A DNA stretch of 41,041 nt from an uncultured delta proteobacterium (GTDB lineage Bacteria > Desulfobacterota > Desulfobacteria > Desulfobacterales > SG8-13): NCBI GenBank assembly GCA_963848135.1, contig CAWKCK010000012.1, forward strand, positions 94,061 through 135,101, given 5' to 3'. This document shows, piece by piece, positions 461-36,721 of this stretch. Each line of letters opens with the position of its first letter. Positions within the stretch are counted from its first letter, which is position 1. A model generated the notes under the pieces. That model was given only the letters and a program-made list of their open reading frames with translations, made no database searches and was not told the DNA's origin. The position numbers and the translations under genes were made by a program.

Positions 461-667
461 CTATGGTACCGGTTTTACCATGTCCACCACCCGGCGGACG
501 TCGGGAAGGCATCAGCGGCCTTTGGGATTATTGGTGGCACACTGGCAGCCGCCGAGCTGCTTGGTGGTCCTGATCTCTTCCATGATTAAGGAATGGCCGT
601 TAGTGAAGACATCCTGCCGTATGTCTTCGGCCGAGTAACCAAAGCAGTAGCAAATCAGCTCTTGCAA
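461..667 (-). CDS. Small BFD-like/CopZ-N-terminal-like Cys-rich metal-binding selenoprotein (68 aa, Sec52)
   Basis: Not in the ORF track. TTG start follows RBS GAAAGGAG: MQELICYCFGYSAEDIRQDVFTNGHSLIMEEIRTTKQLGGCQCATNNPKGR-U-CLPDVRRVVDMVKPVP. TGA at 512-514 takes the first Cys position of the family motif NPxGxCC. A SECIS-like hairpin follows at 482-499. Confidence 0.85.
482..499 (-). promoter_or_regulatory. Bacterial SECIS-like hairpin
   Basis: mRNA GUCCGCC-GGGU-GGUGGAC is a 7-bp stem starting 13 nt after the UGA, with a GU-containing apical loop. Confidence 0.7.
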
Positions 668-1043
668 ATGGTGGTGCTCCTTTCCAGAAGATCGCTATTA
701 TTTTGTCAGCAAACCATATATCAATCGGCTTCAGACCGCAAGTGTCGCATCTCCGTCGGCAACACAAAACCGTTTAACAAGGGGAAGGTATTGACTTTAG
801 TTTTGATCCGAACTTGTTACATCTGTTGGCAAGTTTTGGTCATTGCTTTCCGGTACTTTGGAATTGTTTCGAATTTCGTGCTTATCTTTTCGGATTTATA
901 CCGCTTGGGATATTGCCCCTGCCCCCTTTTGAGGATGACCTGATGTCATCCGCTCGGTGGGTGGAGCGTCGTAGGAGGGTGCCAGTTTGGTCTCTAAGCT
1001 GTGAGGGAGGGGTTTTTCCGCCGGGTGCGGTGCCATTGCCGAA

Positions 1044-1559
1044 TTATTCGGCGGTTTCCCCGAACCGTTCGACACATGATTCCAAGCATTGCCGGCAGTC
1101 ATTGCGATCGGCCGCCTGTTTCGAATAGTAATTCACGAATGCCTGGATCCAGTCTTCACCGGTCCTGGGGCAGTACTGGATATATTCGATGAACTGAACC
1201 AATCTTTCAACCGCGGTGCGATCCATGGCGTGTTCCATGCGGCAGGCGTTTTCCTCCGCCCGTTCGTCATCGAGCAGCAGTACGTTCCGGAGAAAATCTT
1301 TTATAACCGAATGCTTTCTGGCGATTTCTGATGCCAGGGCTTTTCCTGCGGGTGTCAGGGTGATGAAACTGTAAGGTTCATAGTTGATCAGGTTTTTTTC
1401 AGCCAGAGATTTGAGCGCACCGGTTACCGAGCCCTGCATCACACCCATCTTAGCGGCGATCGCCTTGGATCGGGCCACCTTGTTGGCCCTTTCGAGTTCA
1501 AGGATTGTCTCGAGATAATCCTCGAGGTTGTCCGATATTTTTCGGAGTGCTTTGGCCAT
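1044..1559 (-). CDS. DtxR/MntR family metal-dependent transcriptional regulator
   Basis: LEDYLETI...HTH (VMQGSVTGALKSL), YEPY, ARKH...ACRMEHA metal-site motifs, and a Cys-rich C-tail. Confidence 0.93.
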   Translation of the reverse strand: MAKALRKISDNLEDYLETILELERANKVARSKAIAAKMGVMQGSVTGALKSLAEKNLINYEPYSFITLTPAGKALASEIARKHSVIKDFLRNVLLLDDERAEENACRMEHAMDRTAVERLVQFIEYIQYCPRTGEDWIQAFVNYYSKQAADRNDCRQCLESCVERFGETAE

Positions 1560-1651
1560 TTTCGCTCCCCTGCCTTATCGACATATTGAAAGCGACGATC
1601 AACGGGTTGAAAATCACCGCGATCGTGCAAATTTTGGTTGACATGAAAGAA

Positions 1652-1669
1652 AGTTAGGTATACCTAACT
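1652..1669. promoter_or_regulatory. DtxR/MntR-type operator over the feoA promoter
   Basis: Perfect 18-bp palindrome AGTTAGGTATACCTAACT (TTAGG...CCTAA core) just downstream of TTGACA at 1638-1643, between the divergent regulator and feoA. Confidence 0.8.
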
Positions 1670-1711
1670 CCGTCATCTTGTACTGTCAACATTAAAATTG
1701 GAGGCATACAT

Positions 1712-1954
1712 ATGCCGTGCATGAACATGCGCCATATGAAGGACAATCAGGAAGGTGTTATCTGCACCATCAAGGCTCGTGGCGAGCTGGGCCGCCGCAT
1801 CCGTGACATGGGGCTCGTACCGGGAACCCGGGTCAAGGTTCGCGGGAGAGCGCCCCTGTATGACCCGGTCGCCTTGCGCCTGATGGGTTTCACCCTGACA
1901 CTGCGCAACAACGAAGCGGATTACATCGAGGTGGATGTTGACGAACTCCATTGA
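1712..1954 (+). CDS. feoA: Ferrous iron transport protein A
   Basis: RRIRDMGLVPG...RAPLYDPV..LTLRNNEA FeoA motif, RBS GGAGG, overlaps the feoB start. Confidence 0.95.
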   Translation: MPCMNMRHMKDNQEGVICTIKARGELGRRIRDMGLVPGTRVKVRGRAPLYDPVALRLMGFTLTLRNNEADYIEVDVDELH

Positions 1955-4163: not shown

Positions 4164-4174
4164 AGGATGTTGTC

Positions 4175-4372
4175 ATGTGGCAAAACATTGTCGTTACTTT
4201 GATCGTCATTCTGGCGGTGGCATTCACGGCCCGAAAGTTTTATCGCAGCTTCAAGCAAACGGATAGGTGCAGCTGCAATAGTGGCTGCCCAGCTGGAGAG
4301 ACCAGCGTTTGCTGCAGCACTCCGAACCAACTTTTCCCTCTGCACAGCGATAAAAAGGAATTCGAAAAATAA
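4175..4372 (+). CDS. FeoB-associated Cys-rich membrane protein (65 aa)
   Basis: ATG 4175 just after feoB; one TM helix followed by CSCNSGC...CC. Confidence 0.8.
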   Translation: MWQNIVVTLIVILAVAFTARKFYRSFKQTDRCSCNSGCPAGETSVCCSTPNQLFPLHSDKKEFEK

Positions 4373-4380
4373 CGCCCTAA

Positions 4381-4406
4381 CCCGGATATTTCATGAAATA
4401 CTCGGG
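4381..4406. mobile_element. Minimal 26-bp palindromic element of MITE family B
   Basis: CCCGGATATTTCATGAAATACTCGGG flanked on both sides by CTAA (4377-4380, 4407-4410). Its ends match those of the elements at 31239 and 34102. Confidence 0.65.
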
Positions 4407-4630
4407 CTAAGTGCGGTTACTCCCGTTGACTTTGATCCGATTGGACATACTGTTCGAATTAGGGATTACAGAGTGTCCGATTCATACATGAGAATTTTTT
4501 CCGGGCCGGCACCCGCTGAGAACATCCCCCAGAGGAAAAAAGGCCATACTTGGAAAGACACTCATTAAAACCACGAATCTGTGAATAACCAAAGGTGCCA
4601 CACCTAATTTCTATAGAAAGGAGCCATGTT

Positions 4631-4924
4631 ATGACCACCCAAGACAGCGGTTCCAGGTTTACCTTTTATTTTCCGGAAGCCCGGGTCTTGAGCAACGCCG
4701 AAGTCGCCGGACTTCCACCGGAAAAGAAACAGGCGGCTGACAATACCGGTAAGCGAGGGATCTGGTTGGAAATCGATTGCCCGGACCAAGCTTGTGTCAG
4801 CACTGAAGGAAAAATCACCATACCGGCTGCGGGCATAGAGCCCAAAAGCCATAAAGGGGTTTGGTTAAACGTCTTTTGCCCCAACGACAGCTGCGAGATG
4901 CATGAAAGTACGGAATTGCCATAA
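4631..4924 (+). CDS. Hypothetical protein with duplicated G(I/V)WL...CPxxxC motif (97 aa)
   Basis: RBS AAAGGAG; internal repeat GIWLEIDCPDQAC / GVWLNVFCPNDSC. Confidence 0.7.
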   Translation: MTTQDSGSRFTFYFPEARVLSNAEVAGLPPEKKQAADNTGKRGIWLEIDCPDQACVSTEGKITIPAAGIEPKSHKGVWLNVFCPNDSCEMHESTELP

Positions 4925-4981
4925 GAATTGCGGAGGATGGGAATGGCGCGGCGAAACAAAATGGTTAAGTAAGCAAGGTGC

Positions 4982-5017
4982 AGCCCTTCAAACCGATGGC
5001 GTTTGAGGGGCTTTTTT
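4982..5017 (+). terminator. Rho-independent terminator-like hairpin
   Basis: AGCCCTTCAAAC-CGATGGC-GTTTGAGGGGCT followed by a T run. Confidence 0.65.
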
Positions 5018-5061
5018 ATTGGGAAAATATCAAGAAGGAAAACAAGGTTGGAGGGAAGACT

Positions 5062-5940: not shown

Positions 5941-6213
5941 TTCCCTACCTCCCCAAGGGTTACGGGAACTCCCCGCATAGTATTAAATTCATATGGGACG
6001 TCTTTCTGTCTAATCCTTGACAGCGCTTTCTTCACACTGGCTGTTTTTGCGGCCAGCTCGCTGTTTTGCCCCATGACTCTCGGTAGCCATTTGATCGATT
6101 CTGTGTCGTTCACGACTCTTCGTCTCGTGAGCGTCGCATTGGCATTGTTTACTTATTCGTGACGGGTTGCCATCGATATGGCCCATGAAAAAGTATTGGC
6201 GCAACAGGCCGTT

Positions 6214-7155: not shown

Positions 7156-7183
7156 TGCAAAAAAATATGTTGGCTGAAGTAAT

Positions 7184-7250: not shown

Positions 7251-7251
7251 T

Positions 7252-7414: not shown

Positions 7415-7629
7415 TAACTATTTTATAAACAGAATCAAGAAACGTAGCCAGAGATGGAATCAAATCCGTCGGATCGTTCCAGCTAAAGTGCGCATGGCCT
7501 CTCAGATGATTCGATCTTCCCTTGTCACGGTATTCTCGGGCCTTAAGGGTTAGTATTCATAGTGATTTCTATTGGCGGAAAAGAACTCTAATATTTAACC
7601 CTAAAAAGAGTGCATGTCCAGGAGTGATA

Positions 7630-7854
7630 GTGAAATTTTCGCTGAAATCAATTCTGTTCATGTTCTGGTTGTCAATAATGGCAACCGTTGTTTACTTCTA
7701 CCTGCTAAGCGGGATGACATTCATCCAGCTTAGCAGTGATCTTCAAAACCTTATCAGCTCCGCTGGCCCTGGCGCCACTATCGCCTTTGATGTTATTTTC
7801 AGTGGTCTTTTGGACGACTGCCTCTTATTCAATGAGCCAATCCAATCTTATTGA
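7630..7854 (+). pseudogene. Truncated membrane-protein 5' fragment (possibly TVP38/VTT-like) abutting cueP
   Basis: RBS AGGAG plus GTG; MKFSLKSILFMFWLSIMATVVYFYLLSG...LQNLISSAGPGATIAF resembles a VTT-family N-terminus, then runs out of frame into the cueP signal region. Confidence 0.35.
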
Positions 7855-8305
7855 CCAACTTAACGGGGTGGATGCTTACAAGGCTCTGGCCCTTGCGAAC
7901 CAGTGGCACTGGGAAAAGCAACCCGTGAAAACTCATATCACCACTAATGAAGTCGTATTTCAATTTGATAGCGGTACCACCAAAACAATTGCACTTCCTA
8001 GTGAAAAAGTCATGATTGCCGTTGCCCCTTATATTAATAAAACACACACATGAGGGGTTCACTACATGTCCTCCTGTCAGGGGGAATTGACTCAAACAGT
8101 ATTCAACGTCAAAGCCGTCGATTTAAAAGGCGATGTCATTATAAACTCACCCATCATTTCTCTGGAAAACGGATTTATAGAACTTTGGTTGCCAAGAGAG
8201 CGAACAATTAAATTAACCATCGAAGGGTTGAACCGTTCAACCACCGGTGTTATTTCGACCGCGATCGGCAGCAACACTTGCATAACCACCTTTCAACTTT
8301 ATTAA
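7736..8305 (+). CDS. cueP: CueP family periplasmic metal-binding protein, selenocysteine form (joins ORFs 7736-8053 and 8066-8305)
   Basis: Both ORFs share a frame. Readthrough gives VAPYINKTHT-U-GVHYMSSCQGEL...NGFIELWLPR...NTCITT, matching the CueP THxCxxHxxxxCQGE and TCIT motifs with Cys replaced by TGA (8051-8053). The start is uncertain. Confidence 0.85.
8069..8085 (+). promoter_or_regulatory. Bacterial SECIS-like hairpin
   Basis: UCCUCCU-GUC-AGGGGGA, with the loop GU at +23/+24 from the UGA. Confidence 0.65.
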
Positions 8306-9001: not shown

Positions 9002-9021
9002 TTTTGAAGGGAGGCTATCTT

Positions 9022-9217
9022 ATGACCGTAGGGGGAATTTCAATTATTTTGATATTGGGTCTATGCAATCTCATATATGTTGCTTTTTCAAGCAGCTTCC
9101 GGCTTAAGAATAATCAAGGTAAAGTACGGTGTCCACAAAAAAACCGGGATTACTTTATTGATTATTGCCCTGATTCACGGTTTTCTGGGGATAGTCGCCA
9201 ACTCGGTAAGTCAATAG
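9022..9217 (+). pseudogene. Small two-TM His-containing membrane protein, +1 frameshift
   Basis: MTVGGISIILILGLCNLI continues in the +1 frame as (M)LLFQAASGLRIIKVKYGVHKKTGITLLIIALIHGFLGIVANSVSQ*. The shift is at the CATATATG repeat near 9072-9079, and the total length is 196 nt (3n+1). Confidence 0.7.
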
Positions 9218-9417
9218 GGAAAGAAACATGAACGAAAAAGGGGACAACCGTTTAATTCTTCCGCAATCTGAACTAAAGACCTTCTATCCACCATATAAAT
9301 AGCCCCGTAACCGCGCTTTTCCCTTTAACCAATGTAAATTCAATTCGATAGATAGCAAAAGCATACAGTTGATAGGGTATGGCTGTTCTATGTGGTGAGC
9401 AGGTCAAAAACTATCAA

Positions 9418-9468
9418 TTGACGATTCGATTTCTTAACGCTATAAGTATTCTATATATTAATTGAATA
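9418..9468 (+). promoter_or_regulatory. Sigma-70 promoter with ArsR-type operator
   Basis: TTGACG (9418)-17 nt-TATAAG (9441), followed directly by the imperfect palindrome TATTCTATATATTAATTGAATA (9447-9468). Confidence 0.7.
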
Positions 9469-9483: not shown

Positions 9484-10155
9484 ATGAAAAGCCCAAATAG
9501 ACAATTCAAAGACGCCATTTACGAGCAGTTTTCACGAATCGGCAAGGCAATTGCGAGCCCCAGGCGGTTGGAACTGCTCGATCTGTTGTGCCAGGGTGAA
9601 AAAACAGTTGAAACCCTTTCAAAAGAAACCGGTTTAACCGTGGCCAACACATCGCAGCACCTTCAGACACTTCGAGCGGCCCATCTGGTCAAAGCGGAAA
9701 AAGAAGGCCTGTACGTGACATATCGTCTCGCCGATCAAAGGGTCTGTGAGTTTTTCCGTTCCATGCGCGTGTTGGCTGAACACCGCTTGGCAGAAGTGGA
9801 AATGATCAAACGCCGTTTCCTGGAAGGCAAGCAAGGCATGGAGCCGGTAAGCAGAGATGATTTGGTACAGCGTGTTATCGAAGGTGCTGTCACCGTTCTA
9901 GATGTTCGCCCGGTGGAAGAGTTCCGGGCCGGACATATACCAGGGGCGTTGTCCGTTCCCCTGGAGCATCTTAAAGAGCTTCTCTCGAAGCTGCCATCGG
10001 ATCAGGAGATTGTCGCTTACTGCCGGGGGCCTTATTGCGTGCTGGCTGTTCAAGCGGTTGATATGCTACGCGGACAGGGTTTTGAGGCCATTCGCCTTGA
10101 AGAGGGTATTCAGGACTGGCGTGCCATGGGCCTGCCGGTGGAGGTTGGCGATTGA
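9484..10155 (+). CDS. ArsR/SmtB regulator fused to a rhodanese domain
   Basis: ASPRRLELLDLLCQG...SQHLQTLR wHTH; C-terminal LDVRP.EEF.AGHIPGA and YCRGPYC rhodanese loop. Confidence 0.93.
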   Translation: MKSPNRQFKDAIYEQFSRIGKAIASPRRLELLDLLCQGEKTVETLSKETGLTVANTSQHLQTLRAAHLVKAEKEGLYVTYRLADQRVCEFFRSMRVLAEHRLAEVEMIKRRFLEGKQGMEPVSRDDLVQRVIEGAVTVLDVRPVEEFRAGHIPGALSVPLEHLKELLSKLPSDQEIVAYCRGPYCVLAVQAVDMLRGQGFEAIRLEEGIQDWRAMGLPVEVGD

Positions 10156-10228: not shown

Positions 10229-11989
10229 ATGCAAAGCAAAAAATCAATACTTGTGGCAACTGTGGCCATCATCATTACCGCAGTCGCTGTGTGGCATGTG
10301 AAGCGTCCCATTGCGCCGAAGCAAGCCACTTGGGATGACGTCATAGCCGAGGCCAAGGCCGGTGGCTATCGCATCATCACCACCGAAGAACTCGCCGACC
10401 GGTATCACAATGACCCTTCCGGCTCATTGATGGTTGACACCCGACAGGATTGGGAATATCGCACCGGGCATATCGAGGGTGCTCTCAATTTTCCCATGGA
10501 ACCCACCTGGTGGTCTCGCTGGCGCAAATCGTCCGACTTGAGGGCCTTATTAGGACCGGACCAGGATCGCACCCTTGTTTTTTACTGAGCGGGTTTGACA
10601 TGAGTCCGCAGCGACTCGGCGGCCCGTGTGGCTGTTAACCTTGGTTACAAAAATGTCTACCGTGACCCTTACGGATTTCCGAAATGGCAAGAAATGGGCC
10701 TACCTACCGCCAGTGCACCGGCTGGACTTTCGGCACCAGACCAGGATGCCACCAAGCCGAAAGGCAATCTATCCCTCCAGGGTTGGGCCATGCTCTGGAC
10801 TCTTCTGGGCGTTTTCGCCGGCGGACTGGCCCTGAACCTGACGCCCTGCGTTTATCCCATGATTCCCATCACCGTGTCTTTTTTCGGCGGTCGAACGACC
10901 CAGGATAAGCCTGGCCAGATCAAGCTGGTAGCCCATGGACTCTGCTATCTGATGGGTCTGGCTCTGACCAACTCGACCTTAGGCGTCGTGGCAGCACTCA
11001 CCGGTGGTTTGATGGGAGCGATGCTGCAAAATCCCATTGTGCTCATCCTCGTGGCCGGCATTTTGGTCCTGTTCGCCACCAGCCTCTTCGGGCTTTGGGA
11101 ACTGCGCCTGCCCGGTGCCCTGAATCAAATGGCCAGCAAATCATACACTGGATATTTCGGCAGTCTGTTCATGGGGCTCACCTTGGGAGTAGTAGCGGCC
11201 CCCTGCATAGGTCCTTTCGTGCTGGGCTTGCTCACTTGGGTGGCTGGTATGGGCAACCCTTGGCTTGGTTTTCTAATTTTCTTCATCCTGAGCCTGGGGT
11301 TGGGCCTTCCCCTTTTCGTTCTGGCGCTCTTTTCCGGCCAACTGCAACGCCTTCCCCGTGCCGGCGGGTGGATGCTCTGGGTGCGTAACGTCATGGGCTG
11401 GGTCCTTGTCGGCATGGCGGTTTATTTCATCCGGCCGGTCCTACCCGAAGTCCTGAAGGTCATCCTGCCGGTCACGGTTGCTCTTGCCGCCGGGCTTCAT
11501 ATAGGTTGGTTCGATAAGAACCAGGCTGGTTTCAAGGCTTTCCCGTGGCTAAAGACCACCCTGGGCACAACCTGTCTGGTCTTTGCGACCTTTTTGATAA
11601 CCGGCTGGGCCATGCGGGGGCCGGGAATTGCCTGGCATTCCTATTCGGAGCACACCTTGCAGCAGGCCGCAACCCAAAATAAACCCGTGATCATCGACTT
11701 CTACGCCGACTGGTGCGCGCCGTGCCGTGAACTTGAAGAAGTAACTTTTCATCACGCCGAGGTAGTCCGACAGGCGCAAGTTGATTTCTCTATGATCAAA
11801 GTTGATGTGACCAAGGGCGGCGATCCATTTAATGAACGGTTGTTAAAGCAGTACGACGTTAAGGGGGTGCCCACCGTTGTGTTTCTGGATACACAGGGAA
11901 GAGAAAGAGCCGATTTACGTCTGGTGGATTTCCTGCCGCCTGAACTCTTCTTGATCCGAATGGCCAGTTTAAAGAAAGCCGAACCTTAA
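10229..11989 (+). CDS. tsoB: Rhodanese-DsbD(beta)-thioredoxin fusion selenoprotein with two Sec (586 aa; joins ORFs 10175-10588 and 10628-11989)
   Basis: One frame throughout: N-terminal anchor, rhodanese VDTRQDWEYRTGHIEGA...LVFY-U-AGLT-U-VRS (TGA at 10586 and 10601), DsbD TM domain LTPCVYP / AAPCIGP, C-terminal WCAPC thioredoxin. The symbol is recalled from memory of the Tso selenoprotein families and is not verified. Confidence 0.85.
10601..10636 (+). promoter_or_regulatory. Two tandem SECIS-like hairpins, one per UGA
   Basis: UGAGUC-CGCAGC-GACUCG (10601-10618, +13 from the first UGA) and GGCGGCC-CGUGU-GGCUGUU (10618-10636, loop GU at +23/+24 from the second UGA). Confidence 0.6.
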
Positions 11990-12156: not shown

Positions 12157-12474
12157 ATGCTTAACGTCCGATTCTTTCTCAACGAACCTAACGGTAAACC
12201 CTGAAAGCATTTCAAGCAAATGATCCCCGTGCTGGGACATAAGTATGAGATAAATATCGAAATTACTTCCAAGCCTAAAGCAGAATATATGACCGATGAA
12301 TATTTTGAGCTGGATCTTCCGGTTGCGCCAGCCGTAATGGTTGGAGACGACATTGTCGTGGAAGGCTCAGACGTCAGCCAATTCGACATTGAAACATCAA
12401 TCTGCAAACAGTTGAACCTGCCGTCGCCGGAACTTGAACACAAGGGGTTTTTGAAGAAGCTGTTCAAAGCGTAA
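12157..12474 (+). CDS. tsoC: NEPxGxxU-motif thioredoxin/glutaredoxin-like selenoprotein (105 aa, Sec16)
   Basis: RBS AAGGAGA and ATG 12157 give MLNVRFFLNEPNGKP-U-KHFKQM..., in frame with ORF 12220-12474. It has the cis-Pro-like segment VAPAVMVG and a hairpin AUG(A)UCCC-CGUGCU-GGGACAU at 12220-12240. The symbol is recalled from memory and is not verified. Confidence 0.82.
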
Positions 12475-12517: not shown

Positions 12518-13027
12518 ATGGCCGTTATTGAAAAATTTTTAGGGCAACGTGTAGAGATACCTGAGGATCGCCGCTACGATGTCAAGCAGGGCCTCTGGGG
12601 AAGGTTTGTCGATCAGACCATCATCTTCGGGCTGACACAGCCAGCCCTGGTACTGTCCGGAGGGGTCAAAGACATCGAATGGATAGTCGATGAGAATCAG
12701 ATGGTTCGAAGGGGTGAATCGATCCTGTTTGCCATCACCGGCAAAATTCTGTACCTTGAAGCCCCGGTTGCTGGAAGCGTTCAATTCAATAAGATTACAC
12801 GGAAAAATTCATCCTTAATCACATCAGACCCTTACGATCAAGGATGGTTGTTCCTTATTCAACCGCATGGCGGGCTCGATCAGGCATATCAAAGCCTTTC
12901 GTCTCCAGAAGACTATCTCGAAAAGCTGCGCCACTCCGAAGGGTTCAAAAATCCGGAAGGGGTCAAAGGAGGCGTATCCGGCATCTGCAAAGCCGTTTAT
13001 ACCGGGATCGGGGAACAGAAGATCTGA
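12518..13027 (+). CDS. Glycine-cleavage H-protein-like (lipoyl-domain fold) protein
   Basis: IPEDRRY...W...FGLT, GE....GK...EAPVAG, N....DPY.QGWL GcvH pattern. Lys is retained but the ES(V)K context is replaced by ITGK, and there is a C-terminal extension containing Cys. Confidence 0.75.
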   Translation: MAVIEKFLGQRVEIPEDRRYDVKQGLWGRFVDQTIIFGLTQPALVLSGGVKDIEWIVDENQMVRRGESILFAITGKILYLEAPVAGSVQFNKITRKNSSLITSDPYDQGWLFLIQPHGGLDQAYQSLSSPEDYLEKLRHSEGFKNPEGVKGGVSGICKAVYTGIGEQKI

Positions 13028-13226: not shown

Positions 13227-14492
13227 TCATGTAAGACGATAGGCCACTGTTCCCTCAGGATGCTCATACCATCCCGGGTCGCGATCATAGCTCGCCAGGT
13301 GATCCCGGATCTTGATGACCGTAAACATGCCTCCCATTTCGATATTGCCGAAAGGTCCTTTACCCATCATCATCGGCAGTGTGTTTTTCGGCCCACCCAT
13401 ATGCTTGATGTGCTCGGAGTGCTCTGCCATGCCGGTTTCCCCCATGGCCATGTAGCCGGGAATGAGCTCTCGGATTTTTTCTTCCAGCTGCTGCTGGTTT
13501 GCCCCCAATGTGTTGGGAATCGCATGCCCCATCGCGTTCATGGTATGGTGTGACTTGTGGCAATGAAAAGCCCAGTCACCGGGGGCATCGGCAATGAACT
13601 CCACATCACGGGTAGCACCCACGGGTATCAGTGCCGTCGTTTCGGGCCAGCGTGCGCTTGGTGGTATTTCCCCGCCATCGGTCGCCGTTACCCACATGGA
13701 GTGGCCGTGAATATGAATCGGGTGCTCGTCCATGCTCAAATTGGCCAGTCGAATCCGCACGCGATCGCCGGTCCTAACGACTAAAGGATCAATGGCCGGA
13801 AATACTTTACTATTGAAAGTGAACATATTGAAGTCCAGCATCACGGCCGGGTCGGGCCGGTATGTTCCCGGATGCACCGCCCAGGCGTGCAGCATGATGG
13901 CAAAGTCCCGATCGATGGACGGCCCCACGGGTTCCTTCGGGTGAATGACAAAGACTCCCATCATCCCGACGGCCAGCTGTAGCATTTCATCGGCGTGGGG
14001 GTGATACATAAACGTGCCATGCTGCCGCAGGGTGAACTCGTAAACATATGTTTCTCCAGGTTTGATGTGGGGTTGGTTAAGACCGCCCACACCGTCCATG
14101 CCGTTGGGCAGAAAAATACCATGCCAGTGAATGGTGGTGTGCTCCGGAAGTCTGTTTGTCACTAAAATGCGAACGCGGTCGCCTTCGAAGGCCTCGATCG
14201 TAGGTCCAGGGGTTTGGCCATTGTAACCCCAGCATTTGACACTCATCCCGGGCGCAAATTCACGCATCACTGGCTCGGCGATTAAATGGAATTCCTTCAC
14301 ACCGTCTTTCATTTTGTAAGGCAACGTGGTCCCATTGGGGGTTACCACATGTGGTGACGATCGTCTTTTTCGAACCTTTGCAGGCTTTTGTTCGTGCTCA
14401 TTTTGGGCATTAACCCGCGAAGGTCTCAACAGTGCGCCTCCGCCGGATAGGGCAGTGATGGCAGTCATTAACCACTGACGTCGCGTCAGCAT
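13227..14492 (-). CDS. Tat-exported multicopper oxidase (two-domain type with Met/His-rich tail)
   Basis: TRRQWL Tat signal; HWHG, YHPH, HPIHIHGH and FHCHKSHH copper motifs. Confidence 0.92.
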   Translation of the reverse strand: MLTRRQWLMTAITALSGGGALLRPSRVNAQNEHEQKPAKVRKRRSSPHVVTPNGTTLPYKMKDGVKEFHLIAEPVMREFAPGMSVKCWGYNGQTPGPTIEAFEGDRVRILVTNRLPEHTTIHWHGIFLPNGMDGVGGLNQPHIKPGETYVYEFTLRQHGTFMYHPHADEMLQLAVGMMGVFVIHPKEPVGPSIDRDFAIMLHAWAVHPGTYRPDPAVMLDFNMFTFNSKVFPAIDPLVVRTGDRVRIRLANLSMDEHPIHIHGHSMWVTATDGGEIPPSARWPETTALIPVGATRDVEFIADAPGDWAFHCHKSHHTMNAMGHAIPNTLGANQQQLEEKIRELIPGYMAMGETGMAEHSEHIKHMGGPKNTLPMMMGKGPFGNIEMGGMFTVIKIRDHLASYDRDPGWYEHPEGTVAYRLT

Positions 14493-14504
14493 CGCATGCT
14501 CTCC

Positions 14505-15969
14505 TTATTGTTTGTGATGGTGGGTTTCGCGAGCGTCTTTAGGATCCCCGCCCGGTTTTTCGGCTGGTGCCGATGGTGGCAACAAGCTCCCGTCGGCAGC
14601 GGCTACTGGCAGTCGACCACCCACTGCTTTGCGCAAATCAGCCCGAATGATATAGTAGTCTCTGACAGCCTCAAGGTATTTTCCATATGTATCAAACTCA
14701 TGCTGCTTTGCCAGAAGCAAATCGAAGGCACCTACCAGCATGTAGTTGTACTTTTCCAGAGTCAGGGATACAATGCGTTCTCTCAGTGGCACGATAACTT
14801 GTTTGTAGTGATCGATCATATATCGTTGCATGACCAACTTGTCTCCGCAAGGTTCGGACTTCTGAGCGTACATCTACTGCCATTGCGGTCAGTTTGTTGA
14901 CCTCCTGCCTTAGCAGCGCTTCACCTTGGGCAATCTTTGCCTGGCGTTGATCAAACAACGGCAGTTCCAGCACCAACTCAGGGCCTATGACCCAGGTCCG
15001 ATCGGGATCTCGCTCCGCGCTGATTCCAACGTCCAGGTCGCCGATCCAGCGCCAGGTAACTGTCGTTCCCAGAGCTTGCGCAAGTACGTCGATATTTCTG
15101 CGCGCCGATTCAAGATCCAACCGGTTGGTGATCGCCAGGGTTTCCAACTGCACCATGGGGATTTCCTGCTTAGGAATATCCGGAAGCCGTGAGGGCAGTT
15201 GCCAGTCGATGCGCGTGCCCCACAGTCCCATCAAGCGAGTGAGCTGTTCTCTGGCGGTTGACAACAGAATATCACTCTCGGCCAGTCGCACCCTCATCTC
15301 TTCGTATTGCCCTTGTTCATTCGCAAGGTTCAACTCGCTGATGTTGCCGGCTTCGTAAAGGCGACGCGCAAATTCGAAAGAAGCACCAGACGCCTCGACG
15401 ATCTGTGCGCGGACCTGCCTTATGTTGGCAGCTCCTTGAACTTCAAAATAGGCCTTTTCAACTTCCGAAACAATCGAGAGCACTTCGTCGGCCACCATTG
15501 CCTTGGTCTGTTCGAATCGGGCTGCAGCTATCTTTTTGCGGGCCGGCAGCATGAGAAGATCCACGAAATTCTGAACAATGCCAAATTCGAGGTTGCTGGC
15601 AGCCGAGGATACATTGGGAAATCGAATGCTTCCGAACACAATCGGGTTTTTGAGCAGACCGGCCTGGACCACCTCCGCTTGAGTCACCCCCAGTTCTTCA
15701 TAGGTTGCCTGCAGCCGGGCATTGTTTAAAAGGGCGATCTGAACGGCCGAATCGACGGTCAGCTCCTTTTCCAGCAACGATTCGACGACCTGCTGCACTT
15801 CCCGATCTTCCGGCAGGCCCTGGTTCCAGGACACGCGGTAGTCCATGCGTTCGTCGACCATCCGCTGCACGTCCTGGAAGCCGCCTTTGCGGGGTACCTG
15901 GGCGCACCCTGTAATGACAAACCCTATCACGGTGAAGATGACAACTAACTTGCCGCCTGTGGCTTTCAT
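14505..15969 (-). pseudogene. TolC-family outer-membrane lipoprotein (copper resistance), split by a +1 frameshift
   Basis: Lipobox ITGC; AVQIALLNN and LPLFD OEP motifs. ...EVRTLR continues as DKLVMQRY...YNYMLVGAFDLL..K in the frame of ORF 14505-14873 once one extra base at about 14844-14846 is removed. Confidence 0.8.
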
Positions 15970-16307
15970 TGCCCCTTCTCCATGTTATGATGATCCGGCA
16001 TTTCGGAGGGAGACCGATCAGTTTCTCTTCTTTCTTGCTCGAGGGGTGCCGATTGGCCGGCCGGCGATTCAAAAAGATCCCCGCGCGACTTGCGCCGGTC
16101 CGCTTCGATTTCGGATTGATCGTGTGTTTGGGGGCCGGCACTCGTCATTTCAGTGCCAAACGGGTCCGGCGGGGGGATGAACCGGGATTCGGGTGCGCCG
16201 GGATCAGCAGGATGATTCTGCGGTAGCTCGACAGATACCGGATTTCCGGCACAGCCGATCACAAGAGACAGAATAACCAGCAAAACTAAATCTTTTATAT
16301 TAGCCAT
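15966..16307 (-). CDS. Small lipoprotein with HPA motif and His/Met tail
   Basis: Lipobox VIGC, PQNHPADP.APE, C-terminal MPDHHNM; its stop overlaps the TolC start (ATGA). Confidence 0.75.
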   Translation of the reverse strand: MANIKDLVLLVILSLVIGCAGNPVSVELPQNHPADPGAPESRFIPPPDPFGTEMTSAGPQTHDQSEIEADRRKSRGDLFESPAGQSAPLEQERRETDRSPSEMPDHHNMEKGQ

Positions 16308-16328
16308 GGTCTCAATTTTCTATAGGGA

Positions 16329-16925
16329 TTATGAGATGGATGAGGATGCCGAGAACCACATTTCGTAAAGACCTCGGAATAAAACAAAGACAAATACCGC
16401 TCCGAAGAGCCCTCCTCCCGGAATATGGAGCCAGAAAAAAGCAGGAGAAATAAAGCCTTTCAGCCACATTGATGCGATGTCGATCCAGATTCCCAAGAAT
16501 GGGAGGGCAATCAACCAGGCACGCATGTCTGCTCCCAAATTGAGAAATACGACCACCGCGCCCATCAGGATGAATATCGTGCTCATGCCGAAGAGATGAA
16601 TGTGGGTCCATTTCAGCGTCCAAACAAATTGTTCGCTTTTGTAGAAGGGTTCTTGAAGCTTTTTAGGGGAGCTTTCCGTCAGGTTCGAAAATAGGTCGCC
16701 CCGTGCATCGCTCTTAAGGGGGGACTGAGGAGGTTTAGAAACCTCGGGGTTCAACTCAGCTGAGGCGAATTTCGGTATGATGTCGTGAATGACGATTTGC
16801 CCCAGAGCCCCTAACATGCCAACAGCCATCGTAAGCATAATCGCTGTCACCAGCACCTTTGCCGGCAGTGGAAACTGCCTCAGCGTTGGCCAGTTGTGTA
16901 TTGCATCATTATTTTTCACTATCAT
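16329..16925 (-). CDS. Hypothetical membrane protein
   Basis: About four hydrophobic segments with a THIHLFG His motif; co-oriented with the TolC/MCO operon. Confidence 0.7.
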   Translation of the reverse strand: MIVKNNDAIHNWPTLRQFPLPAKVLVTAIMLTMAVGMLGALGQIVIHDIIPKFASAELNPEVSKPPQSPLKSDARGDLFSNLTESSPKKLQEPFYKSEQFVWTLKWTHIHLFGMSTIFILMGAVVVFLNLGADMRAWLIALPFLGIWIDIASMWLKGFISPAFFWLHIPGGGLFGAVFVFVLFRGLYEMWFSASSSIS

Positions 16926-17158
16926 TCCTTTAACCCGGAAATTTCATCAAATGGAGGATTTTATGGCCAAGGCATTTCGAGGTGATGCTGTAGTCAGTTT
17001 ACCGCGATTCTCGAATAATCACGCTATAGCGTGACCATGGGAGCCTCCGGTTGACCCGAAGGGTGCAATCTTTTTAGCTCTTTAATTATATGTTGGGGAG
17101 GTACAAAGTGTCCCTCGGTCATCCGGTTCATGAGTTTGACCAATACCCCGATATGGCG

Positions 17159-17188
17159 CCATTTAAAATTTGAAACGCTCACTTTAGG
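17159..17188. mobile_element. Solo terminal fragment of MITE/IS family A
   Basis: CCATTTAAAATTTGAAACGCTCACTTTAGG matches 430-459 at 29 of 30 positions; no partner end nearby. Confidence 0.75.
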
Positions 17189-17287
17189 TTCAACACAAAC
17201 GTTCTGAAACACCCGCTCGGAAACAGTCACGCCACGTCCTTCGCCAGCAAAACATCACGAGAATTAGTAGCATCTGCAAAAACGATA

Positions 17288-17656
17288 CTACTCGCCGGTA
17301 AAGTTAGAACCGGCATACTCTCCTTGTAGAGTAAAAAATATAAAGACTGATTTCGGGTCGCCCTCTGCGCGATGAAAAGCCACGACCACCTCGGTGTCGT
17401 TTCCCTTCTGCCGATGAGAGACTTCAACCCTTTCAAGGCTGGTTTCCCAGGCTGGATCCAATTTTTGGCTGTCGATCAGCTTGTCGTAAAGCTCAGTGGC
17501 TTTCTTCAGGGCGGCCAGATGAGTGAATTCGCCCATGTCGTGGGCTTTGCCGCCGTGGGCGAATACAACTGCCGCTGCAAATAATAAAATTAACAACATA
17601 AATAGAGTTATTCGAATGGAGTTGCCTCGTATAGGTTTTGTATTATCGCGAATCAT
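17288..17656 (-). CDS. Exported protein with N-terminal His motif (DUF6488-like)
   Basis: Signal peptide ending VFA, then HGGKAH; C-terminal FIFFTLQGEYAGSNFTG. Confidence 0.7.
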   Translation of the reverse strand: MIRDNTKPIRGNSIRITLFMLLILLFAAAVVFAHGGKAHDMGEFTHLAALKKATELYDKLIDSQKLDPAWETSLERVEVSHRQKGNDTEVVVAFHRAEGDPKSVFIFFTLQGEYAGSNFTGE

Positions 17657-17865
17657 TTAGATTTCTCCCATCTACCTGTTTCTCATCCCAAGCTTACTGT
17701 TTAAGTAAATGTTATAATCTTAATCACCGTCGGTGGCAGTATCAAGATACTGCTGGAGATCTCGAAGGCTACCGTGATGATTGATGTAAACAAAATGCTC
17801 AACGCCTATTTGTATATGCGGCACCAGTATCGTTAATCTATAGGATTTAATCTGAATTTTTACAT

Positions 17866-19461
17866 TTATACCTTCACGTAATAATTACGCATCATCCCCA
17901 TATCTTCATGTTCCAAGTTGTGGCAATGGTACAAGAACATGCCGGGGTAATCATCAAAATCAACTAAGATTTTTATTCGCTCACCGGGCATCAGTAAAAC
18001 AGTATCTTTCCAGCCCTCATCCACATAGCCTTGATGCCTGACACCGCTACGTTCAATGACTCGAAACTGCTTACCGTGGAGGTGAATGGGATGCGGCATA
18101 TCCATCATGTTCATCATTCCACCGCCGGTATTATGGAATTCCCAAATCTCTTTTGAGCCTAATTGAACAATCTCGTCATCCGCCACACCTTCCATCTGAA
18201 ACACTCGACCATTGATCGACCATTGCATATGCCGCATCGTGAGATAAAATTGCCGAGGGTTGGAATAGTTAGCAGCTTCATCTATTCGGAGGGGTGTAAT
18301 TTCAGAAAGGTATTCCGGCAGCGACTGTTTTTTTACCACACGCTTTGAAACTTTAATTTTGCATACAGTAAAGCCAGCACCGTTTGGAAGGCTTTGATTC
18401 TGGCGCATTCCTCCGCCCATCATCATTCCGCGTCCCATCCGTCCACCACCCATTCCTCCAACGTCGAAAGGAAGGCTTATTAGGGATGTCTCAAAATCGA
18501 TCGGACTGTCACTAAAATCTGCCCAGATCTCCAACCTTTCCCCAGGGCTTAGAAACGTATACTTTCGGTACACAGGTTTTTCCAATAATCCTCCGTCCGT
18601 ACCGATGATGGTAAGAGGGCGGCCATCTTTCCACGCCAGTTTGTAGATTCGTGAATTAGAACCATTTAACAGGCGTAATCGATACGCACTGGTCGCTACC
18701 GGCAGGGTGAAATCAACCATCCCGTTAACCATTATCCAATCACCCAAAAACCCGGTCATCTGCTCCATCCTGTGACCTGAAGTGTATACGAGCTGATTGT
18801 CTGGATCAAACATGCGGTCTTGCAACACCAGGGGAATATCATATTCATCATCGGGCAAGCCCAAGGCCTGTTCTTCCTCATCAGAAACAAGAAAAAGGCC
18901 TGCCAGCCCGTTATAAACCTGTGGGCCTGTTCTACCGTGGGGATGGGGGTGGTACCAATATGTACCGGCTCTGTTATTGACCTCGAACTCGTATAAGTAA
19001 GATTGTCCTTGTGGAATCACGTAACGCGGATGACCGTCCATAATCGCGGGGACATGAAGGCCATGCCAATGCACAATAGATTCTTCCGGGATTGAGTTGA
19101 AGAAACGAATTCGTATTTTCTCTCCCTGATGAACTTTTATGATCGGGCCAAGATAGCTTCGCGGGAGTTCGATCACCCGGTTTTTATCGCCTTTATGCAC
19201 AATCGCATGGTACTGCCAAACCCGTGTGGGATCTCCTGGGAAAATAGTTACCTCACCAGGTCGCGCTGTGAGGGTAATATCAAGGTCAGGGTTAAATTCT
19301 GTTCCCGGATTTGTCTCTTGATTTTTCCCTGCAAGCGAGGGCTTTAATAGAGGCCAAGCCCCACCTGTTATCATACCCAGCGTTCCGAATCCGGCCAGTT
19401 TCAGAAACTGTCTTCTGTTATTCCTGTCTTCATTCCATAAAACCGTATTTCTCTTTTTCAT
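17866..19461 (-). CDS. Tat-exported three-domain multicopper oxidase (CueO-like, Met-rich insert)
   Basis: NRRQFLK Tat signal; HWHG, WYHPH, HPIHLHG, YHCHNLEHEDMGMM; insert GGMGGGRMGRGMMMGGGM. Confidence 0.93.
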   Translation of the reverse strand: MKKRNTVLWNEDRNNRRQFLKLAGFGTLGMITGGAWPLLKPSLAGKNQETNPGTEFNPDLDITLTARPGEVTIFPGDPTRVWQYHAIVHKGDKNRVIELPRSYLGPIIKVHQGEKIRIRFFNSIPEESIVHWHGLHVPAIMDGHPRYVIPQGQSYLYEFEVNNRAGTYWYHPHPHGRTGPQVYNGLAGLFLVSDEEEQALGLPDDEYDIPLVLQDRMFDPDNQLVYTSGHRMEQMTGFLGDWIMVNGMVDFTLPVATSAYRLRLLNGSNSRIYKLAWKDGRPLTIIGTDGGLLEKPVYRKYTFLSPGERLEIWADFSDSPIDFETSLISLPFDVGGMGGGRMGRGMMMGGGMRQNQSLPNGAGFTVCKIKVSKRVVKKQSLPEYLSEITPLRIDEAANYSNPRQFYLTMRHMQWSINGRVFQMEGVADDEIVQLGSKEIWEFHNTGGGMMNMMDMPHPIHLHGKQFRVIERSGVRHQGYVDEGWKDTVLLMPGERIKILVDFDDYPGMFLYHCHNLEHEDMGMMRNYYVKV

Positions 19462-19480
19462 TTTTAAATCCCTGCAAAGT

Positions 19481-19849
19481 TTATTGGAGTATGTCTTTTT
19501 TCATGGTTTCAAATTCATCCTGGGAGATTTCTCCCCTGGCATAGCGCTCTTTGAGAATATCAATCGCTTTAGGACCCACGCTTTCACCAGAATGCCCTTT
19601 ACTGCTCGTGTTCTGAATCAGCCATCGAATCAGCGACACGAGGCCGACAACAATCAGGCCCCAGAATATAATCATGAAAATCATACCAAACCATCCCATT
19701 CCCCACCCGTCCATCATCCAACGCCCCATGTGCCAGTCATTGTACCGGTCTGATTGGGCCAAAGTGGGATTTGCTAAAAATAAACTGCCTGGTATCAACA
19801 CGGATAAGGATCCCGCCAACACTTTTCGGAACCTGTATTTGTCTTTCAT
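19481..19849 (-). CDS. SHOCT domain membrane protein with Met/Gly/Trp-rich segment
   Basis: HMGRWMMDGWGMGW, a TM helix, and AIDILKERYARGEISQDEFE. Confidence 0.85.
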   Translation of the reverse strand: MKDKYRFRKVLAGSLSVLIPGSLFLANPTLAQSDRYNDWHMGRWMMDGWGMGWFGMIFMIIFWGLIVVGLVSLIRWLIQNTSSKGHSGESVGPKAIDILKERYARGEISQDEFETMKKDILQ

Positions 19850-19969
19850 TTTATACACCCTGTACAATATCGCCTAATGCCATAAATAAGCCGTAAATTG
19901 ACCTTTTCACAAGATCACAGAACTATTGTTATTGGGTTTACCTGGCCGTATAATATTTTTAAAATGAAT

Positions 19970-19989
19970 GGGGCGACTGTCGCCGCCCC
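19970..19989 (-). terminator. GC-rich hairpin after the zraP-like gene (terminator or mRNA stabiliser)
   Basis: GGGGCGGC-GACA-GTCGCCCC followed by ATTCATTTT on the minus strand. Confidence 0.45.
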
Positions 19990-20017
19990 TTTACAAGTCT
20001 TCACTGCGCTTTTAGAA

Positions 20018-20527
20018 TTACCACCTGCAGTAGTATCCGCCACTATTGGGACCATAGCCCATCATCGGGCCATTTCCCATCATTGGGCCATATCCTCCAT
20101 AGCCACGGTCATAATTGGGTGCTGATTTTCTGGCCTGAAGTTCATAGTCCAGCCCTTTCTGATCGAGGTCAGCTTGAAGTTTGGAAATTTCACCCTGCAG
20201 ACTCGATGCTTTCGCAGTGTCCGGATTTTCCTTGGCCAGCTCGCTTCTCAGGGCAAGCTCTTTTTCGTAAAGCTGTTGCCGGGTATTTTCAGTCGCTTTG
20301 AAGAATTCAGCACGTTGTTGATCCAGTTTGGCTATCTCTTCACTTGAAAGGTTGCCAGAGTATCCTTCTTGGCCGTACCCATATCCACCCATTTGATTCC
20401 AACCCGGCCCCATCATGGGCCCCATCATATGTCCGTATCCTCTACCCCAACCGGCAAATGCGAGGGCGGTCATGCCAAAGATCGCTAAAACCGTTAGTAT
20501 CATTATTCCTTTTACTTTCCTGTCCAT
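20018..20527 (-). CDS. ZraP/Spy/CpxP-family periplasmic metal-responsive protein
   Basis: Signal peptide, Gly/Met/Tyr-rich termini, LSSEE...RQQLYEKELAL..EL...PD helical core; RBS GGAGG. Confidence 0.85.
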   Translation of the reverse strand: MDRKVKGIMILTVLAIFGMTALAFAGWGRGYGHMMGPMMGPGWNQMGGYGYGQEGYSGNLSSEEIAKLDQQRAEFFKATENTRQQLYEKELALRSELAKENPDTAKASSLQGEISKLQADLDQKGLDYELQARKSAPNYDRGYGGYGPMMGNGPMMGYGPNSGGYYCRW

Positions 20528-20593
20528 TGTTACCTCCATAAGTGTTAGTTGATGTGTTATAAGGTGGTCACGTTACTTGGACGATCTTCACAA

Positions 20594-20830
20594 TCATGAT
20601 TTGTTGTCATCAGGATTGGAAGGGGTGGAATGAAATCCCTTATGCATGAATACATGCATCAGCGGGCACAACAGAATCAGCAGAAAGTATGCGGAACTGC
20701 CTATTATTCCTGTCCATGAAAGAAACAGCAAAAGAACTAGTGGCGCAGCACAACCGAGAAGCATGAGCAGGGCGTGATTCTGTTTGAGTGATTTCTGCGA
20801 GAATGATTCGATGAGCCGCTTCATATTCAT
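20594..20830 (-). CDS. DUF2933-like small membrane protein
   Basis: HALLMLLGCAAP...LLCPLMHVFMHKGFH motif. Confidence 0.75.
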   Translation of the reverse strand: MNMKRLIESFSQKSLKQNHALLMLLGCAAPLVLLLFLSWTGIIGSSAYFLLILLCPLMHVFMHKGFHSTPSNPDDNKS

Positions 20831-20888
20831 TTTCCGATACTTTGTGTTTATGAGAGAGTGCATTCACTCTTAAGGTTAGCCTCGTGTA

Positions 20889-21146
20889 TCAATGGCAGCT
20901 CGGCGTTTTGCCGCCGGTGGCTTTGTTCAGCCGGTCCAGGTATCTCTGCCAGACTCCTTTACGTTTCATCTTCCCAGTGGATACAAGGTACTTTTGCGGT
21001 TTGTTTTCAAAGGCCTTGCGGCACGATTCGGCACAGAAGAAATAGGTGTGGCCTTCAAAATCGACGGCCTTAACCTTCGTTTCTTGTTCAACAATCATAC
21101 CGCAGACCGGATCCAAATTTTCTATACGTGATCTGTAAAGATTCAT
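20889..21146 (-). CDS. YHS domain protein
   Basis: DPVCGM...YFFCAESCRKAF..KPQKY with a C-terminal PSCH; ATG 21146 follows GGAGG. Confidence 0.88.
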   Translation of the reverse strand: MNLYRSRIENLDPVCGMIVEQETKVKAVDFEGHTYFFCAESCRKAFENKPQKYLVSTGKMKRKGVWQRYLDRLNKATGGKTPSCH

Positions 21147-21282
21147 TTTTTCCTCCTGCTGGTTGATCTCTACACTGGAAATTGGACTTTGACTCATTTG
21201 TTTACCAATTTTAACTTTGGAGGGAAATTTTCCAACGTAGGTAATCTCCAACCTGTTCCATTATCCTTTACTATTATGTCAA

Positions 21283-21455
21283 AGCATAAAGCATGCCAAC
21301 ACTACCACATAGTGGTAATGATGCGTGCAAGTAACTGATTGATCAATAACAATTCAGATAGGAAGAGCTTGGTGGATGTTTGGGGGTTCAGCCGAGTGGA
21401 TAGTTTATACCCACATTTGTGGAAACCCTATACTTCTGCTGCGCACAAATTACAC
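21283..21455 (-). promoter_or_regulatory. Sigma-54 promoter with paired enhancer sites for the YHS-zraP-MCO operon
   Basis: Minus strand TTGGCAT-GCTTT-ATGCT at 21283-21299; palindromes GGATA-N5-TACCC (21398) and GCGCA-N5-TACAC (21441). Confidence 0.75.
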
Positions 21456-21707
21456 ACCTTAGTACAATCGTTATTGTCGTCGAATTCGATATCAGGCACC
21501 GTTGTAGCGAAAACCCGACAAAGAGGTAGTAAAATTTCAGTTTAGATTCAGGCGAATAGATTTTGGAGAAAGAACAACGACAGGCAAAAGGGGATAATAT
21601 TTTCTTTGTTGCGAGCCTTGCCTATGGCTTAATACATAGTAATTAGCGAAACTTTACACCCAATAAAGGTGGATGGTTTCCATATAGAGGGTTTGAGACC
21701 AGGTTTC

Positions 21708-22586
21708 TCAACAACTCGGTGGATCAAGCATCCAAGGTGCTGGGCGGTATGTTTCCCTGCGCCAGCGCCAATTTAGATCGATGATCTCACCGGGCTTGTC
21801 GATCTGGTAGAGGGCTTCGAAGGCCCTTCCAAGAACGGCGGCCTGCTGCGGGATGTTGTGAGCTTCTCCTAATGGATGCCCAAACGGCCAATGTAAGAAG
21901 ATCGACCGCGGTGGTTTGATTTCTTCGGTGTATTTTCGCACGATAGATATACTGATGGTGGCGATACCGACGGATTCGATGACTCGTTGAATCAATCCAA
22001 CGGATTGATTGCAAATCCCTCAGGCCGGCGTCAATAGAACAACATCCACCTCGTCCGCTCTGAGTATAGACGCCACTTTGGGAGCGGTCTGGTTTATCAA
22101 CGTGTCGATGTGTTTACCATCAATATGGCCCATGAAGCTGATATGCCTTTCGGCCAAGGCACCGATGCAGCCCGCTGCTGACATCTCTTTGAGGCGTGTG
22201 ATGGGAAAAACGATATTGATGTCTTTATCGGCATCGCGGTGATCGTAGTAATCGTGTGTGATGGTGAAGTCGTTTTCTATACTGGCGGTATCAAGAATAC
22301 GGTAAGTAGGATCGCCATCGGAATCAGCCATATTGAATGCGGGTTGCTCACGGTGGTGCAATCCGGCAGTGGTTACGACAGCGATCTTGGATTCATTCAG
22401 CGGTTTGGTCACTTCTACCCATGGACTTTTGTAAAATGCCAGGGGCTTAAATGCCTCTATCAGCTTATTGGAGAGGTACGGCCAATAGGTCGTCAGGCGG
22501 GCAATCCCCTGATGAATAAGTCTTCTTATTGCTACAGGCGCTTCAAATCTGTTTATTATTCTCAATCGATACGACCTCTTAATCAT
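21708..22586 (-). CDS. PrdB/GrdB-like (glycine/proline reductase selenoprotein B family) UxxC selenoprotein (joins ORFs 22020-22586 and 21708-21995)
   Basis: IAVVTTAGLH, GDPTYR, HDYYD...DINIVFP, then VLLTPA-U-GICNQSVGLIQRVIE..GIAT in one frame (TGA at 22020-22022), and KPPRS...PFGHPLG. Confidence 0.9.
21990..22010 (-). promoter_or_regulatory. Bacterial SECIS-like hairpin
   Basis: Perfect 9-bp stem AAUCAAUCC-GUU-GGAUUGAUU starting 10 nt after the UGA. Confidence 0.7.
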
Positions 22587-36717: not shown

Positions 36718-36721
36718 TTTT

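Follow-up and report, generated by a model that had tools for sequence, protein, structure and literature searches.

Among the exported copper proteins of bacteria, CueP of Salmonella Typhimurium (PF21172, NF038094, PDB 4GQZ) is understood at the level of single residues: Cu2+ reduction is accompanied by formation of a disulfide between Cys96 and Cys104, single site mutants lose protection, and the protein also guards against Fenton damage (PMC3935622). In the same organism the DsbD-family proteins ScsB and ScsC hand Cu+ to CueP (PMC10907172). Selenoproteins that handle metals have been catalogued separately and include an HMA protein with a UxxU motif (NF041115), a P-type ATPase with UxxC, the SO_0444 transporter and MbdU (PMC13188914). 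Here we describe a stretch of 41,041 nucleotides (the window) from an uncultured delta proteobacterium of the Desulfobacterales (contig CAWKCK010000012.1, positions 94,061 to 135,101), in which five genes carry six in-frame TGA codons that very probably all encode selenocysteine (Sec). One of the five is a cueP gene with TGA in place of the Cys96 codon.

The reading that we prefer, with a probability of about 0.85, is that the organism decodes all six UGAs as Sec, and that the genes comprise four known selenoprotein types and an uncatalogued Sec form of the exported CueP. SelB, together with a hairpin after each codon, would insert Sec at all six sites. Sec-CueP would then bind copper outside the membrane through its selenolate, Cu(II) would be reduced while a Sec-Cys bond forms in place of the Cys96-Cys104 disulfide, and the oxidised protein would be re-reduced by a DsbD-type pathway. 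A selenolate is a softer ligand than a thiolate and more readily re-reduced. Copper binding and reduction by Sec-CueP are inferred by analogy, because the copper site is conserved.

The window CueP matches PDB 4GQZ by sequence (E 2.9e-18), and its predicted structure, with Sec modelled as Cys, has a mean predicted local distance difference test (pLDDT) score of 96.4 and a Foldseek template modelling (TM) score of 0.88 to 4GQZ; the Salmonella-type model NF038095 is missed (96.9 < 195). Fold and the equivalents of His94, His99, Cys104 and Cys172 are shared with the Salmonella protein, as is a putative export signal. A His-Sec-His-Cys-Cys site stands where Salmonella has His94-Cys96-His99-Cys104-Cys172, and all five positions, those of the His, His, Cys and Cys around the Sec among them, show no variation across 43 aligned sequences. 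What differs is the residue at position 96, Cys in Salmonella but UGA here, with a selenocysteine insertion sequence (SECIS) behind it, and the hosts, which here are Desulfobacterota and Bacillaceae. CueP is predicted to be exported in both groups, with a signal peptide in Desulfobacterota and as a lipoprotein in Bacillaceae; by eye, the leader is signal-like in the relatives and altered in the window copy. CueP domains are also found fused behind other domains (repeat, beta-propeller-like and DUF305-like, by eye) in the Cys-type relatives P0101, P0130, P0205 and P0243.

Support comes from the homologues of the window gene in Desulfobacterota. At 37 genome loci the codon in the CueP column is TGA (25), TGC (7) or TGT (5) and nothing else, and at all 25 TGA loci the frame stays open for 83-86 codons beyond the TGA. 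Protein databases mirror this: 39 of 50 hits end at T-H-x, exactly before the codon, and the 11 full-length hits have Cys (7) or Trp (4) at the column. The hairpin is intact at 25/25 TGA loci and at 0/12 Cys loci. Codons +7, +8 and +9 (TCC, TGT, CAG) are identical in all 25 TGA loci, while flanking synonymous sites vary and the C-terminal halves are on average 62% identical. Two loci have a paired change in the stem from C-G to U-A (18 of 26 sequences examined). As for the machinery, 22 of 24 TGA genomes have selA and the remaining two have selB; among Cys genomes selA occurs in 6 of 11. In a 49-row tree with the column masked, the Sec rows group together with weak basal support (67/95) and the Trp rows fall inside; a single Cys protein nested deep among the Sec rows is likely a reversion.

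A second set of Sec-CueP genes was found in Bacillota. Among 150 representatives of the CueP family the column holds Cys in 138 and Trp in 3, with 9 not covering it, and the three Trp proteins were traced into metagenomes. In the best 80 of the 206 loci recovered, TGA occupies the column 18 times and a Cys codon 62 times; the frame is open for 82-83 codons beyond the TGA in all 18 TGA loci, and this form scores 189.5 against the NF038094 cut-off of 60. These loci share a hairpin distinct from that of Desulfobacterota, with its loop at +19, in 17/18 TGA loci as against 2/62 Cys loci. The peptide LTGCQG is encoded by one DNA sequence in 15 of 16 Sec loci, the sixteenth having a paired change, whereas the 25 Cys loci with this peptide use no single DNA sequence more than two times. 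Database records cut CueP at the TGA: 43 of 45 matches to its N-terminal half end at T-H-x, under names that include Cytobacillus oceanisediminis 2691, C. firmus, C. eiseniae, Mesobacillus subterraneus, Salipaludibacillus and Texcoconibacillus, and none of these is labelled CueP or selenoprotein. Strain 2691 is listed as a Sec user (SelD+/Sec+) with eight known selenoproteins (supplement of PMC5029168).

A single Sec clade is rejected (approximately unbiased test, p-AU 0.00025, on a tree of a 48-row subsample of 11/25, 10/18 and 27/74 rows). On this evidence the Cys-to-Sec change at the CueP column appears to have arisen at least twice, each time with its own SECIS. There may have been more than two origins, or many reversions.

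We found no earlier description of Sec-CueP. CueP is absent from the accessible text of the 2026 catalogue of 119 families (PMC13188914), and likewise from the accessible parts of the deep-Sep paper (PMC12013277), the Peng 2016 supplements (PMC5029168) and the Olavius paper (PMC1976440). A full-text literature search for CueP with selenocysteine or selenoprotein gave nothing relevant within its coverage, which excludes Haft & Tolstoy 2025, BSepDB Table S2 and subscription journals, and of the two CueP models that came up in NCBIfam 20.0, neither bears the name of a selenoprotein. The catalogued metal-handling selenoproteins resemble Sec-CueP in having Sec at a presumed metal ligand; the CueP fold is unrelated to theirs, the structure and copper chemistry of its Cys homologue are known, and the switch from Cys to Sec is seen in two phyla.

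The case for Sec at all six codons was made in an earlier note, drawn up from the letters of the sequence alone, and its observations are confirmed. The TGAs lie in frame at 512-514 (-), 8051 (+), 10586 (+), 10601 (+), 12202 (+) and 22020-22022 (-), as that note had them (its minus-strand figures being the low coordinates), and each joins pieces of one protein, every read-through product matching a family. A hairpin is present behind each codon, as claimed. In the order of the codons just listed, the stems start at +13, +16, +13, +15, +20 (TsoC) and +10, and the apical loops are +20 GGGU, +23 GUC, +19 CGCAGC, +22 CGUGU, +24 CGUGCU and +19 GUU, so that every loop begins 19-24 bases downstream; the TsoC stem has 4 bp at +20, or begins at +16 if lower pairs are included. 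GU is indeed present in five of the six loops, CGCAGC being the one that lacks it, and a G stands early in each. It is important to point out that a hairpin by itself is weak evidence of Sec. Under scoring specific to this analysis rather than a published bacterial SECIS model, three of the six hairpins pass one energy filter, and so do 60 of the 799 TGAs that end long open reading frames (ORFs) in the same genome. We therefore regard conservation of the TGA among homologues as the decisive evidence. The alternation of Cys codons and TGA that the note had pointed to as a sign of Sec appears for CueP and not for the other four genes, which have TGA in all loci examined. Contigs from four other sediment runs show no difference at the five TGAs that they cover, among the differences listed (337 more lie outside the list).

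Sec machinery, also named in the earlier note, is found: selA, selB, selD and a tRNA-Sec(UCA) on contig C2 all exceed curated cut-offs in this genome (G000; 6.03 Mb, 98.65% complete), and selD carries a TGA of its own. A second, split selB-like copy (G000:C15:43659-45516) lies, like the intact copy on C4, beside a tRNA-His at a contig end; it is perhaps an assembly duplication. That the TGAs are true stops in pseudogenes, or that Trp or Cys is inserted at them, is hardly credible: Trp does stand at the CueP column in 4 of 50 and 9 of 120 listed database proteins, and non-canonical selC* tRNAs are reported for some Sec genomes (PMC13582414), but the Trp rows adjoin TGA loci on the tree and resemble gene-caller read-through, TGG is at the column in 0 of 117 DNA loci, frozen synonymous sites are unexpected in pseudogenes, and long ORFs of the genome end in TGA more often than in any other stop (799/2037), so that recoding is site-specific and the genome does not use code 4.

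Several observations weigh against the preferred reading. Covariation in the Desulfobacterota hairpin amounts to a single pair, seen in two loci. Within the phylum few genomes have the family (4 of 401, three of them with TGA); it occurs in 5 of 15 genus members. In Bacillaceae, the Sec machinery is supported in one strain, 2691, through a published table (PMC5029168), and that strain shows the cut protein, the TGA itself coming from near-identical metagenome loci. On the tree, Sec rows of Bacillota are scattered among Cys rows, with two Sec rows in a separate branch, and gains and losses there are therefore uncountable. Copper genes lie in the fetched flank of 4 of 25 Desulfobacterota TGA loci and 5 of 12 Cys loci, many contigs being short, and a CopA-like gene at 1 of 18 Bacillota TGA loci as against 9 of 62 Cys loci. 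Since copper genes flank so few Sec loci, Sec-CueP is not tied to copper operons. Finally, mature CueP of the window differs from that of its closest relative by seven synonymous and six non-synonymous codon changes, a sign of modest constraint, and the window gene has neither the ATG nor the ribosome site of its relatives.

This last point leads to the alternative that retains most weight, although we rate it below even odds: the family is genuine, but the window cueP is a silent, 5'-damaged gene or an assembly artefact at 7783. The earlier note was right to see a Sec gene here; it did not single it out as the uncatalogued one, nor remark on its deviant 5' end. Similarity to relatives begins only at 7783, and the sequence upstream is unlike that of all relatives seen, while the closest relative (L006), whose DNA is 96% identical across the 5.8 kb that precede, carries an ATG and a ribosome site there. 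Upstream of the signal-peptide core the sole candidate for a start is GTG 7736, which lacks a clear Shine-Dalgarno sequence and has a weaker hydrophobic core (2.19 versus 2.72), and a contig of another run differs in sequence upstream of 7783. One genus member (G038) has no cueP at this place, and 7543-7710 recurs there, joined to the end of the cueP position. Single-base frameshifts elsewhere in the window also speak for damage or misassembly; they lie in a small membrane gene (9004-9260, where other runs are one base shorter at 9076-9077) and towards the 3' end of the gene for the outer-membrane efflux protein (14496-15969), and are probably assembly indels. Against a silent copy, the leader from GTG 7736 has a Lys and a hydrophobic stretch and shares its frame with the cleavage region. 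Mature part, TGA and SECIS have all been preserved, and the closest relative has the same 54 bases from the TGA onwards. The left junction of the replacing segment (7514-7782) is bridged in two other runs. The segment was also considered as the start of a membrane-protein gene, an assignment that was dropped for want of Pfam or Atlas support and because G038 has a stop in that frame.

Rather unlikely, in our view, is that Sec-CueP is no copper protein and instead serves general extracytoplasmic selenol redox chemistry or scavenges peroxide or soft metals (Hg, Ag). Such a role would suit the missing copper neighbours at most Sec loci, the predominance of redox enzymes among characterised selenoproteins (PMC13188914) and the protection that Salmonella CueP gives against Fenton damage. 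The invariance of the five copper-site residues argues the other way, as do CopA or multicopper oxidases beside four Sec loci and in the window.

More ambitious than the preferred reading is the proposal, improbable on present evidence, that the selenolate acts as direct copper ligand and reductant independently in two lineages, at the same residue, and, with recycling by the neighbouring TsoB in this genus, would form an envelope copper circuit like that of ScsB/ScsC and CueP. A little less probable still is that all five genes constitute one selenium-based metal-defence system, in which the di-Sec TsoB would recycle Sec-CueP. TsoB and TsoC adjoin Sec-cueP in the window, in L006 and in L007, and the ScsB/ScsC transfer of Cu+ offers a precedent. 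However, TsoB is close to cueP at only 2 of 25 TGA loci, 21 other TsoB genomes and 3 other CueP genomes do not overlap (samples of 300 and 400), tsoA is not found in this genome (the search control was silent as well), TsoA-like motifs preceding tsoB at 18 of 26 loci, and gene order is shuffled among genus members. We conclude that the five genes do not constitute one system; a functional link between TsoB and CueP is possible but unsupported.

The notion of Sec-based proteins concentrated in and beside a copper/iron island, put forward in the earlier note, thus holds in part. Local density is high: an even spread of about 38 Sec genes over 6.03 Mb would put about 0.14 into 22 kb, where five are found, in a stretch picked after the fact; a comparable cluster of seven Sec genes in 48 kb lies in an Hdr/Mvh/Fdh stretch on C18. 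A copper role has family support only for CueP, and the region is a patchwork, with a gene order that varies between close relatives and with the five genes belonging to different modules. The coordinates are collected in Table 1; in the metal-resistance context the CopA-type P-ATPase and the third oxidase were named by motifs and similarity, the rest mostly by Pfam. The description of all five genes as hidden was too strong: curated NCBIfam models for selenoproteins already recognise TsoB and TsoC, and the 2026 catalogue lists four of the five types, CueP being the uncatalogued one.

Table 1. Features of the window; cut-offs follow the scores.
Feature	Position	Strand	Evidence
BFD-like/CopZ-N [2Fe-2S] selenoprotein, short stand-alone, G-R-U-C (TGA 512-514; hairpin 482-499)	461..667	-	read-through, profiles
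Segment replacing cueP promoter, ribosome site and first codons of closest relative	7514..7782		comparison with relatives
Sec-CueP gene, CueP family, predicted exported	7736..8305	+	NF038094 129.5 > 60; PF21172 109.6 > 27
UGA, probable Sec at Salmonella CueP Cys96 position, T-H-T-U-G-V-H-Y-M-S-S-C	8051..8053	+	alignment to 4GQZ, PMC3935622 numbering
Putative cueP SECIS, 7-bp stem, GUC loop at +23	8069..8085	+	intact in 25/25 TGA loci
ArsR-family regulator carrying a rhodanese domain, immediately upstream of tsoB	9484..10155	+	Pfam
TsoB, rhodanese/DsbD fusion selenoprotein, U-x4-U (TGA 10586, 10601)	10229..11989	+	NF045694 997.5 > 805
SECIS-like hairpin, first TsoB Sec; base overlaps second UGA	10601..10618	+	similar sequence in relatives
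SECIS-like hairpin, second TsoB Sec	10618..10636	+	similar sequence in relatives
TsoC, NEPxGxxU selenoprotein (TGA 12202; weak 4-bp hairpin 12224-12237)	12157..12474	+	NF045708 142.8 > 45
GcvH-related protein, downstream of tsoC	12518..13027	+	NF045810 256.9 > 150
Metal-resistance context: three multicopper oxidases, outer-membrane efflux protein (frameshifted), YHS, Metal_resist, MntP, RseC, CopA-type P-ATPase	13227..32874	-	mostly Pfam
PrdB/GrdB-like selenoprotein, U-x-x-C (TGA 22020-22022; 9-bp hairpin 21990-22010)	21708..22586	-	PF07355 41.2 > 22

The four remaining genes are new members of known selenoprotein types: TsoB, TsoC, the CopZ-family GxUC form and proline reductase all appear among the 119 families in Table 1 of PMC13188914. 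Adjacent and over curated cut-offs, the window TsoB and TsoC resemble the Tso operon of TsoA, TsoB and TsoC (NF045695, NF045694, NF045708; PMC13188914), from which the window differs in that tsoA is absent upstream of tsoB, its place directly upstream being taken by the ArsR-rhodanese gene, a protein matched in 13 of 57 Tso loci (some matches may be other rhodanese domains). With the window copies included, TsoB has TGA/TGA in all 26 motif-matched loci of 27 fetched, and all 27 motif matches to TsoC have TGA. In several Desulfobacterota genomes (L236, L262, G259, G464) TsoC paralogues stand in tandem, and N-E-P-C-G-x-x-U is the motif of some.

The CopZ-like gene, whose start is probably the TTG at 667 behind AAAGGAG, yields a read-through product of 68 residues. 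It shares the G-R-U-C motif and BFD-like domain with CopZ family form 1, 'GxUC' (PMC13188914, Table 1), but covers only the C-terminal half of the full-length NCBIfam models NF047645 and NF045877 and stays below both cut-offs. The protein is matched in 51 of 121 genomes of the order, and the 25 best loci, window copy included, all have TGA and are similarly short; the idea that the gene is a truncated remnant was rejected on this account. The PrdB-like protein has the U-x-x-C motif of the PrdB/GrdB family (TIGR04483, PF07355) and differs from PrdB by about 50 extra N-terminal residues and a score below the equivalog cut-off of TIGR04483 (169.1 < 300); a search for prdA gave no match in the genome, its control being likewise silent. 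It is matched in 39 of 121 order genomes, with TGA in 25/25 best loci including the window copy; a terminal Cys-Sec was rejected, the C-termini not being conserved. 'Proline reductase' selenoproteins were counted earlier in deltaproteobacterial symbionts of Olavius (PMC1976440). Some 12 kb from the PrdB-like gene, at 34357-37630 (-), lie a trans-4-hydroxy-L-proline dehydratase (over cut-off) and its activase.

No further Sec gene stood out among the candidates or six-frame gaps of the window, by a heuristic whose score falls short of 14 at two of the six Sec sites themselves, and a search of the window against Rfam gave 0 matches; a codon-model scan run without an overlap filter was discarded, its output being mostly antisense artefacts. 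Elsewhere in the genome about 33 Sec genes were recognised by motif, which makes about 38 in total; 18 of the further genes were scanned and 13 match NCBIfam families at E <= 1e-12. An MtaA/CmuA-like methyltransferase (G000:C17:303762-304793 (-); L183/L304) has an in-frame TGA within the motif A-P-G-U-D, followed by a hairpin that is conserved; one TGA is present in 13 of 14 order matches, the motif could be placed in 9 of 12 loci, all with TGA, and the type is absent from Table 1 of PMC13188914. It is possibly another uncatalogued selenoprotein family. In a [NiFe] hydrogenase large subunit (G000:C3:566735-568381; L182), Sec would occupy the second Cys of the N-terminal motif, with TGA in 20 of 30 loci and a hairpin common to them; an N-terminal CXXU of this kind is already published (PMC13582414). 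An RseC/MucC-like protein, so named by resemblance (G000:C17:55502-55936 (-); L196), combines C-x-x-U with a hairpin; 4 of 75 order matches contain one TGA, which falls at the named Cys in 2 of 12 loci, one of them that of this genome, and the RseC of the window (27270-27773) has Cys at this position. A membrane protein (G000:C3:661027 (-); L184) has an in-frame TGA in Y-G-G-Q-V-U-P close to its start and a C-terminal domain that we take to be phosphatase-like.

Overall, the bacterial selenoproteome would gain a family that annotation now splits, in cultured Bacillaceae as well. Two apparent origins at one residue, with two hairpins in the same conserved peptide, suggest selection for selenium at that ligand. 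CueP is a small soluble protein whose Cys form has a crystal structure and a copper chemistry known residue by residue, and close relatives carry natural Sec and Cys versions; the question of what selenium offers over sulfur in binding a metal, as distinct from serving an enzyme as nucleophile, would thereby become directly testable.

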